IMG/VR virus record: IMGVR_UViG_3300032295_001045
Coordinates: 1-34,397 of that record
From: a virus
Length of the DNA stretch: 34,397 bases
Reading direction: 5' to 3' (one strand)
Below the pieces are notes generated by a model. That model did not search any database. It saw only the letters and a program-made list of their open reading frames with translations, and was not told the origin of the DNA. Shown one piece after another: positions 18,863 to 29,697 of the stretch; within the stretch, counting starts at the first letter, position 1; each line of letters begins with the position of its first letter. The position numbers and the translations under genes are program-made.

Positions 18863-18891
18863 ACTATACACACAAAACAATCACAAATCAA
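18863..18891 (-). promoter_or_regulatory. Sigma70-type promoter TTGATT-N17-(TGTG)TATAGT
   Basis: Minus strand reads TTGATTtgtgattgttttgtgtgTATAGT, followed by 16 nt, then AAGGAGAG and the ATG. Confidence 0.5.
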
Positions 18892-19594
18892 TATACTCGC
18901 GTACTTTTTTTTCAGCCTGTTTTTTCCGCGCATCAAACTCTGCGCGTTCAGCTTCGCCTTTTTCATGCCAGGCAGGTTTTGGTAACTTTAGTATCGAAAG
19001 CAGGTCTTTAAGTTTTTTCCGCACACCCTCCGGCATTTTTTGTTCAAGCAATGGCACGTTGTTTTCCAGCAACGGAACATCACGTCCTATCTGTCGAGCG
19101 TGTTCTATCGCTTGCGTTCTTTTTTTTGCGTCAAAGCCAAGCGACACATTCCAGACTACCTTCTCGCCGCGTTCTTTAGATTCGCGCACAATCCGGTTAT
19201 AAGCGTCTTTGAATGCCATTCTCGCTCCCACTTCGTCGCCCATCGCCAGCACAGGCTTACAAATCCCCCAGGCTTGCGCCATGTCTTGCGTCCAAACCAC
19301 GGTTTCAAACTCATCTTGCGCTTTCAGTGCGGTCGCCCACGCTTCGTCAGCGTCCGGGCGCGGGTCTTGTCGTGCGTCTATCTTTGCGATCAGGTCAGCC
19401 GGGGCGGGAAAAAATCGGCCTCGGTCAGAATCACGTAAATGCGCCTCTAAAGCGCTTCTAATGTCTTCGATGCTATACCGAGCCATGACACGGAAAAACA
19501 TCGCAATCTGAGCCGATTTAGGCGGGTTCTTGCCCATCAGTTCTGCTGTACTGACCAGCAATGCTTCAAAGTCGTCAAAATCAGCTTTAAACAT
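18881..19594 (-). CDS. Replication protein, lambda P-like / helicase-loader-like
   Basis: 237 aa counted from the ATG at 19594, overlapping the initiator stop. The segment FFRVMARYSIEDIRSALEAHL...RFFPAPADLIAKI recalls the P/G39P-type pattern from memory. Sits directly after the initiator gene. Confidence 0.4.
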   Translation of the reverse strand: MFKADFDDFEALLVSTAELMGKNPPKSAQIAMFFRVMARYSIEDIRSALEAHLRDSDRGRFFPAPADLIAKIDARQDPRPDADEAWATALKAQDEFETVVWTQDMAQAWGICKPVLAMGDEVGARMAFKDAYNRIVRESKERGEKVVWNVSLGFDAKKRTQAIEHARQIGRDVPLLENNVPLLEQKMPEGVRKKLKDLLSILKLPKPAWHEKGEAERAEFDARKKQAEKKVREYIDL

Positions 19595-20294
19595 CAATCA
19601 CCTCGTCCAAAAATCCAAGCATGCGTTTTGCTTCCAGGTTTCGTGTTTTTGCGTCGTTTTTGTCAACCATTGGTACGTTTTTGTCAACCCATTCCGCTTT
19701 GAATCCAACCCATCCCCGCTCGCAACAGGTTTGCAATGCGCGTTCAAGCGAATACCCGGCTTTGTCAGCTTCGCGTTTGATTCCAGCAAGCGCGGTTTCC
19801 GTGACCGGCGCTTTTTTGGCTTTTCTCAGTGCAATAAAATCATGCGCTATTTTTTCGCTAACCTCGGCCAGCAAATTATCGGGCGTTATATTGACGGTTC
19901 CCTTACGGTTCTTTGACGGTTCTATGACGGTTAGGGTGCACGTGGTGCGGGGGTGGGGTGCATATTCTGCGGGGGTGGGGTGCATTTCCTGCGGGGGTGT
20001 GGTGCATTTGGTGCGGGAGTGCATTTCCTGCGGGGGTGCATATTCTGCGGGGGTTAGTAAATACTTAGTCGATCTCCCGGTGCTCATTTCGCGTGTCAGT
20101 GCGCCGTTTTTTTCTAGCCACAAAACAGCATTTTGAACAGCCCTTTCTGACGCGCAAACCCTTTCGCAAATAGTAGCTATCGACGGCCAGCAGGTGCCGT
20201 GATCGTTAGAATTATCAGCCAGGGATATATATACAGATTTTGCCAGCAGCGGCATTTGAAGCGGCCAGACCAAGGCCATGATCTTTGTACTCAT
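19587..20294 (-). CDS. Replication initiator (lambda O-like; N-terminal winged-helix domain) with the origin inside the gene
   Basis: 235 aa counted from the ATG at 20294, with GAGGA upstream. N-terminus LAKSVYISLADNSNDHGTCWPSIATICERVCASERAVQNAVLWLEKNGAL. The iteron array maps to a low-complexity linker. Confidence 0.7.
   Translation of the reverse strand: MSTKIMALVWPLQMPLLAKSVYISLADNSNDHGTCWPSIATICERVCASERAVQNAVLWLEKNGALTREMSTGRSTKYLLTPAEYAPPQEMHSRTKCTTPPQEMHPTPAEYAPHPRTTCTLTVIEPSKNRKGTVNITPDNLLAEVSEKIAHDFIALRKAKKAPVTETALAGIKREADKAGYSLERALQTCCERGWVGFKAEWVDKNVPMVDKNDAKTRNLEAKRMLGFLDEVIDV
19894..19932. repeat. Four ACGGTT motifs phased at exactly 11 bp
   Basis: ACGGTT at 19894, 19905, 19916 and 19927, directly abutting the iteron array. 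Confidence 0.9.
19937..20053. repeat. Six 17-bp iterons TGCAYNTNNTGCGGGRG (candidate replication origin)
   Basis: Units start at 19937, 19959, 19981, 20003, 20020 and 20037, giving spacings of 22, 22, 22, 17 and 17 bp. Units 2 and 6 are identical, as are units 3 and 5. Confidence 0.9.
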
Positions 20295-20355
20295 ACTGTC
20301 CTCATTAGTGACCAGCCCAAGGTGAGAATTACCGGGTCGGCGCACTTTTTAAGTG

Positions 20356-20427: not shown

Positions 20428-20733
20428 TTATCTAATTTTATTTGAATTTCTCAAAAACGCAAGCCCTGTTTTTGTTATTGCCCACACTCTAGCGTTCCTG
20501 CCGGTTTTAGTCTGTCTGACTTGAGTAGTCAAACGAACATAACGCGGAATTTCAGGTAATCTTCTGCAAATCTGATACTTGTCGAGACAGCAATTCTTTG
20601 CTATTTCGTCAGCCGTTCCGTCTTTCATTTCAGACAAAGCTAACAGAATAGCGCGGTAATGTATCGTTGTTACTGAGCCTATTTTTTTTGCGGCGTCTTT
20701 GCTTGTTTGCGGGTCATTCTTTCTTGCTCTCAT
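20428..20733 (-). CDS. Winged helix-turn-helix DNA-binding protein
   Basis: 101 aa. IHYRAILLALSEMKDGTADEIAKNC...RRLPEI...GRNARVWAITKTG fits a MarR-like wHTH layout. Confidence 0.6.
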   Translation of the reverse strand: MRARKNDPQTSKDAAKKIGSVTTIHYRAILLALSEMKDGTADEIAKNCCLDKYQICRRLPEIPRYVRLTTQVRQTKTGRNARVWAITKTGLAFLRNSNKIR

Positions 20734-27951: not shown

Positions 27952-29697
27952 TTACTGGGCGGCAATAACGGGTGCGCTTAATTGCCCGGCGCGTAAAAGG
28001 TCAATTAGTAATTGATTCGGCGCGCCGCTTCCGGGTCTCATTACAGCATTTGCCAGTCGTGGGTTTCTCAATAATTCCTGTATCCCAACTGCAGTAGTTG
28101 CTCCAGCCGCAAGTCCGGGAAGCCCAGCCATAGCTGAACCACCTAAAGCGCCCAATTGCAGCAATGCCCTCATTGACCCACCAGTTTGTGGCGTTCTATC
28201 TACTAAAACCCTAGAGCCAAGTTTAGATAATTCGGCAAGCGGCACATTTCTTAAGTCGCCATAAGACCTATTTACTGCTTGCGGTAACAATGCCGCCGGT
28301 ATGTCGCCAGCTTCTCTGCCAGCAATGCCTAATTCTGCATTTCTGATTAAAGGTTCAACCGTTTTGAATGCTTTGTATTGGCTTCTGTTTAGGGTAAGCG
28401 CTGCCGCATCTTCTGGCTTTACTGAATCATTAAAAGTGTCAATAATAGACTTTCTCAGCTTAGTAAATTCATCAGAAAGCGCCGGGAAAGATTCTGCCCT
28501 ACGTCTCAAATAAGATTGAAATTTATTAGCAACATCACCGGGAATAATTGAATTTCCGCTTGCGTCGGGCACTATTTTTGAATACAAATCATCTATTTCA
28601 CGCAAAACCGCGCCAGCTTCGTTTTTTGGCAATTTTTGAGCTTGTTTTTTTACGTTTTCAATTGTTTGAAGCATGTTTGGGGCAACAACTAAATTATTGT
28701 TGTTCCAAATCTCGTCAAATTTATTGCCTAATGTTTTTTTGGCATCGTCTATAACATCTAAGGTAAGTTTAGGCGCATTTGCTCCAAATGTTTGTCCAAC
28801 AGCCCTATTAAATGCTTCCTGTTTTGCTTCTTGCGCGGTTGCTGCCATGCCGCCAGTGATGGGCGTGTCTTTTAATATAGACCTACCAGCTTGCACCATA
28901 CGGCTTTCTGCCAAATCACCCAAACCTACTGGTATGTTGTATTTTTGTGCTAACTGTGCAAGTTCAACATTCTTCGGGCGCATTTTTTGCCCCAAATAAG
29001 AACCCGCTGCCCCTGTTGCCCTACTAACTAACGGAATAGCGGCACTAACAGCCCCCGCCGTTCCCGCATCTTCTGGGTTAATCATTCCCCCCGCCAGTGC
29101 GCCAGTTGTTCCTGCCGCTCCTGCTCTCAAAGCTAAATCAGCGGCTTTTGCTCCAGTGGTAACAGGGGCGGCACCAGTCGTCATGCCTGACGTTCTTAAT
29201 GCGTTTATTAGAGCGGGAGCGCGTGAAGCCACACCGGGTATCATTCCAAGACCTTTGGCAAGCGCACTACCAGCGCCAGCGGTTCCCGCCATCTGGGTAA
29301 GTATTTTTGCAGCCTGAAAATCTGCCGATTCCGGGTCTGCGCCCATTGATTGCAAACCTTGTTCTATTGCTTGTCTGCGTTCAGGGTTTCCAATAGATTG
29401 AGTATTACCTGCCAGCAAATCATAAGGGGTTAGCAATGTAGCGCCAATTGAGCCAGCACCTTCAACAGCGCCAGCAGCACGGTTTAATTTTTTCACTACA
29501 GAACGTCGAGCATAATCAGCAACACCTTTGCCTAGTCTTTGTAATAGGCTGGGTTCTTGTGGTGTTTGTGGAGCTTGTGGAGCTTGTGGCGTTTGATTCC
29601 TTGCGGCTTTATAAGCAGCAGCAACAGTTTCAAACTCAGGCGTACCTTGTTTGTCCTGATTTTCGACTATCCACTGAGCGTATTTTTCTGCGCTCAT
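27952..29697 (-). CDS. Internal virion / ejection-like protein C (581 aa)
   Basis: Ala/Gly-rich with a PQ repeat near the N-terminus. Occupies the gp16-equivalent slot before the fiber gene. ATGA overlap upstream. Confidence 0.45.
   Translation of the reverse strand: MSAEKYAQWIVENQDKQGTPEFETVAAAYKAARNQTPQAPQAPQTPQEPSLLQRLGKGVADYARRSVVKKLNRAAGAVEGAGSIGATLLTPYDLLAGNTQSIGNPERRQAIEQGLQSMGADPESADFQAAKILTQMAGTAGAGSALAKGLGMIPGVASRAPALINALRTSGMTTGAAPVTTGAKAADLALRAGAAGTTGALAGGMINPEDAGTAGAVSAAIPLVSRATGAAGSYLGQKMRPKNVELAQLAQKYNIPVGLGDLAESRMVQAGRSILKDTPITGGMAATAQEAKQEAFNRAVGQTFGANAPKLTLDVIDDAKKTLGNKFDEIWNNNNLVVAPNMLQTIENVKKQAQKLPKNEAGAVLREIDDLYSKIVPDASGNSIIPGDVANKFQSYLRRRAESFPALSDEFTKLRKSIIDTFNDSVKPEDAAALTLNRSQYKAFKTVEPLIRNAELGIAGREAGDIPAALLPQAVNRSYGDLRNVPLAELSKLGSRVLVDRTPQTGGSMRALLQLGALGGSAMAGLPGLAAGATTAVGIQELLRNPRLANAVMRPGSGAPNQLLIDLLRAGQLSAPVIAAQ
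29554..29589. repeat. Four tandem 9-bp units NNYTTGTGG encoding QTPQAPQAPQTPQ
   Basis: ttcttgtgg tgtttgtgg agcttgtgg agcttgtgg, read directly from the sequence. Confidence 0.85.

Follow-up and report, generated by a model that had tools for sequence, protein, structure and literature searches.

A probable ori-lambda-like replication origin inside the HTH_36 initiator gene of a phage, with dyad iterons that covary with the initiator recognition helix and a conserved array of short boxes

The DNA considered here, the window, is the whole of IMG/VR record IMGVR_UViG_3300032295_001045, a complete virus of 34,397 bp with direct terminal repeats in which the minus strand carries all the long open reading frames (ORFs). 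A replication initiator of 235 amino acids is encoded at 19587-20294 on that strand, and within its coding sequence lie two families of short repeats, six iterons of 17 bp and four boxes of 9 bp, which probably form the origin of the phage. The true start of the gene is the ATG at 20294, within an ORF extending from 19587 to 20345; it comes after a GAGGA and yields the MST... N-terminus found in all relatives. A near-identity DNA search among cultured phages gave no match to the window.

The initiator comprises an HTH_36 winged helix, a disordered linker, a three-helix bundle and a terminal helix. Its N-terminal domain matches Pfam HTH_36 (PF13730) with 39 bits against a cut-off of 25, and the protein matches PHROG 391 (E 4e-26) and PHROG 678 (E 4e-24), both described as 'replication initiation O-like'; 538 homologues were found at E ≤ 1e-5. 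In the AlphaFold2 model, calculated from an alignment of 36 sequences with a mean predicted local distance difference test score (pLDDT) of 80, a confident winged helix formed by residues 1-83 is followed by a low-confidence coil at 84-140, which is predicted to be disordered, and by the three-helix bundle at 147-193 (19716-19856, minus strand), which reaches a pLDDT of 89.5 when folded alone. The predicted recognition helix spans residues 50-62 (SERAVQNAVLWLE; codons at 20109-20147, minus strand). The iterons and boxes together encode residues 81-135, that is, the linker. A fold search with the whole initiator returned only generic winged-helix regulators.

The six iterons, which are candidate binding sites for dimers of the initiator, occupy 19937-20053, with plus-strand starts at 19937, 19959, 19981, 20003, 20020 and 20037. 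Exact matches to the pattern TGCAYNTNNTGCGGGRG are confined to these six starts in the 34.4-kb genome; at up to two mismatches the count rises to eight against 0.77 expected, a number reached in none of 100 shuffles. Repeat finders give a spacing of 22, 22, 22, 17 and 17 on the plus strand, which becomes 17, 17, 22, 22 and 22 in the direction of the gene. The starts and spacing listed in the original prediction, a note made from the sequence of this DNA before the present analysis, are thereby confirmed, as are its two pairs of identical units (19959 and 20037; 19981 and 20020). On the gene strand the unit reads C[C/T]CCCGCA-N5-TGCA with the dyad core GCA-N5-TGC, and the array measures 117 bp. 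The template (plus) strand of the array, 19937-20053, is a series of runs of four or five G (GCGGGGGTGGGG...), and most iteron types in the family have dyads flanked by C-runs; such G/C-runs may form a G-quadruplex or contact the initiator wing.

The box array (19892-19933, minus strand) begins 3 bp after the last iteron in the gene direction and appears to be a conserved second element of the origin. Its boxes, at 19892-19900, 19903-19911, 19914-19922 and 19925-19933, read TAACCGTCA, GAACCGTCA, GAACCGTAA and GAACCGTCA in the gene direction, with an 11-bp period and in one orientation. The hexamer ACGGTT recurs at 19894, 19905, 19916 and 19927, in exact 11-bp steps and where it had been placed in the earlier note, and a hexamer present four times at a period of 10-12 bp was seen in 0 of 200 Markov-simulated genomes. 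The 9-mer KAACCRTMA has six matches in the genome, four of them in the box cluster, and no second repeat cluster of the iteron or box kind occurs in the 34.4 kb. None of the periods (11, 17 and 22 bp) is divisible by three, which marks the repeats as features of the DNA and not of the protein, in which the boxes of the window are read as TV, EPS, NR and TV.

Two sets of relatives were compared: a close set of 26 related loci from viral contigs, 13 of which have 72-89% identity over the initiator N-terminal domain, and a distant set of 80 prophage loci from reference genomes, the distant relatives being 29-60% identical. Most full-length close loci have six iterons with the 17, 17, 22, 22, 22 spacing, and L011 and L013 have three. 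Across the close relatives the unit is C[C/T]CCCG[C/A]A-N5-T[G/T]CA, being of a GAA..TTC type in four close loci (L002, L004, L005 and L008) and of the GCA..TGC type in the others. The types are never mixed within one iteron and both half-sites change together, which is the signature of a symmetric dimer site; the array of L008 contains one GCA-type unit among five of the GAA type. Among the first 80 residues of the initiator only 50 and 55 covary perfectly with iteron type (14 close relatives), with E50/N55 accompanying GCA iterons and D50/K55 accompanying GAA iterons, and this split is seen on two different protein backbones.

Correspondence between helix and iteron is also seen among more divergent proteins. 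The helix SERAVQNA is found with the iteron CCCCCGCA-N5-TGC at 12 loci, and SDRA[V/I]QK with CCCCCGAAC-N3-GTTC in Caldimonas, Noviherbaspirillum and Undibacterium, whose initiators are 29-38% identical to that of the window; a D/K helix occurs again with CGAAC..GTTC in the distant loci L053, L069 and L070. Helices with Q54R go with CCCCGGCA-N5-TGCC (CGGCA..TGCC), those with Q54H with CCGCAG..CTGCGG and those of the form G[K/R]TAVI with GTCCG-N5-CGGAC. In a tree of the N-terminal domain for which the helix had been masked, the D/K-GAAC pairing turns up at no fewer than four separate positions. This comparative evidence for binding of the initiator to the iterons is strong, and it points to the N-terminal domain as the seat of iteron specificity.

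The boxes are near-invariant in all close relatives, irrespective of iteron type, and vary only at synonymous third positions. Diversity at third codon positions is 0.098 in the boxes, a figure that comes from only 16 codons, against 0.227 in the N-terminal and 0.252 in the C-terminal domain. A strict-box census covered 42 family loci and 132 boxes, with the consensus [G/T]AACC[G/A]T[C/A]A; three or more strict boxes lie within 46 nt right after the iterons at 31 of the 42 loci, and the A at +8, which was not required by the search, is present in 131 of the 132 boxes. Spacings of 10, 11 and 12 bp were found 22, 44 and 13 times, with 11 the modal value. Reading frames 0, 1 and 2 account for 48, 43 and 41 boxes, and the only near-invariant residues in the protein alignment are the 'EP' of one box, so that conservation acts at the DNA level and a peptide motif is ruled out. 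That the repeats should have no function as DNA, being a consequence of coding for a low-complexity Pro/Thr/His-rich linker or a module boundary at which recombination of N- and C-terminal halves is favoured, is extremely improbable. The region does encode a disordered linker, and the two halves are clearly shuffled within the initiator family, but the periods of the repeats and the almost equal use of the three frames do not fit such an origin, and neither do the constraint on synonymous sites in the boxes and the symmetric change of the iteron half-sites along with the recognition helix.

Boxes follow the last iteron in nearly all members of the family, despite differences in iterons, neighbours, host and C-terminal domain, of which at least three types come after the boxes. 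They stand behind sequence-unrelated iterons in prophages of Xanthomonadales, Burkholderiales and Pseudomonas and in an alphaproteobacterial metagenome-assembled genome (MAG). In Stenotrophomonas phage CUB19, AACCGT or AACCAT is present four times after the iterons with a spacing of 10, 10 and 12, and in Pseudomonas phage Itty13 the iterons are followed by GAACCGT, GAACCGC, GAACCTA and GAACCGA spaced by 11, 12 and 12. A gammaproteobacterial subfamily (Shewanella, Photorhabdus, Serratia, Marinomonas and some Pseudomonas) has the variant GAACCAGTCA with a spacing of 18 + 12 bp, which was confirmed in E. coli phage mEp460, and GAACCATCA boxes are present on contigs binned to Bacteroidota and Rhodothermales, the MAG binning of prophage contigs being uncertain. 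The box subtype follows the initiator subfamily and not the host, as the Pseudomonas prophages L055 and L106 differ. From these comparisons, the box array is a family-wide, frame-independent element of the DNA.

Two further arrangements were noted among the relatives. In a Ferrovum myxofaciens prophage (L068, 2501-3100) a perfect DnaA box, TGTGGATAA, stands among the iterons and another just behind the GAACC boxes, and some family members may recruit host DnaA. The viral contigs L020-L027 combine a DUF1376/YdaU-type N-terminal domain with a C-terminal bundle of the window type, at about 60% identity, and upstream of the bundle they carry, in this order, arrays of AACCCAGTCGG (about three copies at 11 bp) and CTAACCA (five copies, or AACCGAT, at 7 bp) and the palindrome GCGCACAAGTGCGC. 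These short AACC-containing repeats may be related to the boxes.

Taken as a whole, the repeats are in our judgement best explained, with good probability, as the theta-type origin of the phage, placed inside its own HTH_36 initiator gene and built like ori-lambda. The original prediction had placed a lambda-style origin in the linker-coding stretch of an O-like gene, the iterons being sites for the initiator, and this is strongly supported by the comparison, both through the covariation and through the order of the elements. As in gene O of lambda and of the lambdoid and Shiga toxin (Stx) phages, the origin would be contained in the initiator gene, where the linker joins the N-terminal DNA-binding domain to the C-terminal partner-binding domain; there are several iterons with internal dyad symmetry, the next gene overlaps the initiator stop, and the N-terminal specificity matches the iteron type, in the window family as judged by comparison. 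The order of N-domain coding sequence, iterons, second element and C-domain coding sequence is also shared, and the boxes of the window sit where lambda has its A+T-rich region, directly past the last iteron on the C-domain side. The two systems differ in that the window has six C-rich iterons of 17 bp and lambda four of 18 bp, and in that lambda has a purine-rich A+T tract where the window has four conserved GAACCGTCA boxes in 11-bp steps at about 48% GC. The initiator also belongs to HTH_36 (PF13730) and not to Phage_rep_O (PF04492), for which a scan against Pfam gave no hit at E ≤ 0.01. Homology of the initiator to lambda O and of the downstream protein to lambda P was rejected, as BLASTP similarity is not significant for either protein, and the resemblance is thus one of architecture and not of family.

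It is quite unlikely that the iterons serve mainly in autoregulation, copy control or incompatibility (by titration, handcuffing or a transcriptional roadblock) and that replication starts elsewhere. Iterons of plasmids do both jobs (PMC10797057), and the array is within the initiator's own transcription unit; on the other side, the 34.4-kb genome has no other such repeat cluster, the layout mirrors ori-lambda element by element, and the same gene family is found on records of about 40 kb in a plasmid collection. These records, which carry the initiator homologues H71-H82, measure 38-57 kb and come from Arsenophonus nasoniae and Pseudomonas aeruginosa; from their size we infer that they are phage-plasmids.

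The AT-rich patch beyond the other end of the iterons, which had been put forward as a part of the origin, fared less well. The sequence TTAGTAAATACTTAGT is present at 20055-20070 as described, but it is not conserved, and so it is not supported as an origin part: it codes for the STKYLL strand in the wing of the winged helix, and most close relatives have the GC-richer TACACGCTA. It was rejected as an unwinding element, being also on the N-domain side of the iterons, opposite to the A+T region of lambda, and is probably not an origin element.

For the ori-lambda-like arrangement we propose the following mechanism. Dimers of the N-terminal winged helix of the initiator would bind the six dyad iterons (CCCCCGCA-N5-TGCA), with contacts made by the recognition helix 50-62 and with residues 50 and 55 reading the GCA/TGC half-sites, and an O-some-like complex would thus form over 117 bp of the DNA that codes for the linker of the initiator itself. 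The four GAACCGTCA boxes, 3 bp downstream and one helical turn apart, would be the site of duplex opening and helicase delivery. Some conserved component would recognise their sequence, and the simplest candidate is the initiator, using a second mode of binding, in the way that Rep proteins and RctB recognise the repeats of their own unwinding elements. Finally, the C-terminal three-helix bundle would bring in a helicase loader, the putative product of the downstream gene that overlaps the initiator. What the comparison shows is the repeats, their conservation as DNA and the covariation of helix and iterons; that the region acts as an origin, that the duplex melts at the boxes, what reads them and how the loader is brought in are what we infer.

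It would seem about an even call that the boxes, recognised by a conserved component, serve to unwind the DNA or to load the helicase, a reading that is favoured by their position in place of the lambda A+T region and by the precedent of repeats in unwinding elements. Such repeats are known in the four 13-mers of RK2 oriV, the 13-mers of oriC and (G/A)ATCA of V. cholerae ori2, and have been reported for lambda (PMC10797057); the original prediction therefore went too far in setting a second repeat family outside the paradigm. In RK2, oriC and ori2 both the sequence and the position of the repeats matter, and the initiator binds one strand (PMC10797057). Like the boxes, these are short arrays of direct repeats in one orientation that adjoin the initiator-binding sites. 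They are, however, A+T-rich or T-rich and differ in sequence between replicons, whereas the boxes of the window family are part of coding DNA, contain about 45-48% GC and hardly change in sequence across many iteron specificities. Averaged over the family, the 48-bp box region has a GC content of 0.455, lower than that of the loci (0.596) and of the iterons (0.668), and nearest-neighbour stability is lowest there.

Several points weigh against this interpretation of the origin. In the window itself, a phage of 48% GC, the stability of the box region is only average (-1.387 kcal per step, the genome mean being -1.403), and in high-GC relatives the low stability may simply follow from the conserved sequence. 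The comparisons made did not single out any protein as the box reader, and the initiator has no detectable sequence similarity to lambda O (BLASTP E = 1.5). With about 100 bp between the helix and the iterons, both can be moved by one recombination tract, and part of the covariation could be linkage, especially in the close pairs. The pairing recurs in deeply divergent lineages, and functional coupling is thus the only economical reading of it.

The alternative that the boxes are double-stranded sites for a separate host or phage protein, which bends or organises the origin beside the initiator complex, and are not the unwinding site, is unlikely in our view, though their geometry speaks for it. 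The conserved core of 9-10 bp leaves spacers of just 1-2 bp, the mean spacing is near one helical turn, the boxes keep a single orientation and the gap from the last iteron is a constant 3-4 bp, a geometry like that of the arrays of low-affinity DnaA sites that have reportedly been found in oriC. The boxes themselves were rejected as DnaA boxes, as they match the consensus TTATCCACA at 4 of 9 positions, and no DnaA box with one mismatch or fewer lies within 2 kb of the origin. A separate protein is also difficult to reconcile with the persistence of the boxes in alpha-, beta- and gammaproteobacterial prophages and in contigs binned to Bacteroidota and Rhodothermales, and with a box subtype that tracks the initiator subfamily and not the host.

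Nor do the neighbouring genes supply such a protein, since both the upstream winged helix-turn-helix (wHTH) gene and the downstream partner gene vary among the relatives that keep the boxes. The wHTH-like protein (20428-20733, minus strand; 101 amino acids; PHROG 1123) is not consistently linked to the origin: a homologue is found upstream of the initiator in only a few relatives, such as L045. It had been suggested earlier as a reader of the boxes, which is unlikely with the gene missing upstream of most relatives that have them. As neighbouring genes are not conserved, the boxes were rejected as sites of either the wHTH protein or the loader.

The downstream gene (18881-19594, minus strand; PHROG 6028, function unknown) encodes a putative helicase loader, loader-like by its position only, which is that of lambda P. 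Its ATG at 19594 overlaps the end of the initiator gene (GTGATTGATGTTTAA, 19587-19597), which implies translational coupling as at the lambda O-P junction. In relatives this position is occupied by a homologue of the window gene, a DnaC/IstB-like ATPase or a DnaB-type helicase. The C-terminal bundle of the initiator, which it shares with DUF1376/YdaU-type initiators, would be the domain that recruits such a partner. A DnaT-like fold had been suggested for it by published work (PMC5509034) and by 'primosomal protein I' annotations, and was rejected because no link is shown by Pfam, by a PDB-sequence profile or by Foldseek. Residues 141-204 gave no Pfam match to DnaT at E ≤ 10, the profile search with the C-terminal domain returned no DnaT and Foldseek with the model of the domain returned nothing at E < 3, each of these being a weak test for a bundle of 60 residues; no significant match in sequence or structure, DnaT included, was obtained for the bundle.

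Two in-frame repeats were noted in passing. In the C-terminal tail of the initiator, CGTTTTTGTCAACC occurs twice, 21 bp apart (19655-19668 and 19676-19689; span 19655-19689), giving VDKNVPMVDKN, and this duplication is present only in the window, L002, L003 and L004. A 9-bp tandem repeat, CTTGTGGAG, is present in 3.8 copies at 29556-29589, in frame inside the ORF 27952-29697.

Among cultured phages with an HTH_36 initiator, Stenotrophomonas CUB19, Pseudomonas Itty13 and E. coli mEp460 have iterons and then GAACC boxes inside the gene, as in the window, with iterons that differ in sequence and number. Shigella phage SfV and Salmonella phage ST64B have an initiator of the same family, the likeness being at the protein level only. 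Protein identity for these five phages is 27-50%. The cultured-phage records that were examined have no annotated origin or repeat features, and iterons go unmentioned in a paper on Stx phages. DopC and DopE are a domesticated lambda-like HTH_36 protein and a P-like protein (Brezellec et al, 2017, PMC5509034). In DopC, too, an HTH_36 N-terminal domain precedes a small C-terminal domain of helices, and the gene after it is loader-like; DopC differs in that it was reported without iterons and in that its C-terminus was assigned to DnaT_C by HHpred (PMC5509034). Searches of the literature on the box sequence, on HTH_36/PF13730 and on iterons in O-like prophage genes found no published description of an HTH_36-initiator origin or its boxes.

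A bolder proposal, which we offer tentatively and at clearly less than even probability, is that the GAACC(N)GTCA array is an undescribed, sequence-specific origin module in hundreds of phages and prophages with HTH_36 initiators across bacterial classes, in which it replaces the generic A+T-rich unwinding element and is read by a conserved surface of the initiator or by a universal component of the replisome. As single strands, the boxes might then join the iteron-bound protein in a loop-back complex. If this is true, the boxes would be a constant 'engine', and the iterons and recognition helix a freely evolving 'address'.

For a large family that is usually annotated just as 'helix-turn-helix domain protein', the comparison gives a well-supported assignment of the origin and of the initiator sites. 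From sequence covariation it also suggests a recognition rule, by which E50/N55 would read CGCA..TGC, D50/K55 would read CGAAC..GTTC and Q54R would read CGGCA..TGCC, and with which replication specificity and incompatibility could be predicted for prophages and phage-plasmids resident in one cell. If the records of the plasmid collection are indeed phage-plasmids, this type of replicon is able to keep a prophage outside the chromosome. A Pro-rich linker whose coding DNA has dyad iterons and then GAACC boxes is a usable marker for annotating the origins of metagenomic phages. A constant array of 9-bp boxes amid changing surroundings is a natural case in which to study DNA opening and the handover of the helicase by a winged-helix initiator, and mEp460 in E. 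coli K-12 is a workable system for the study of the box array.

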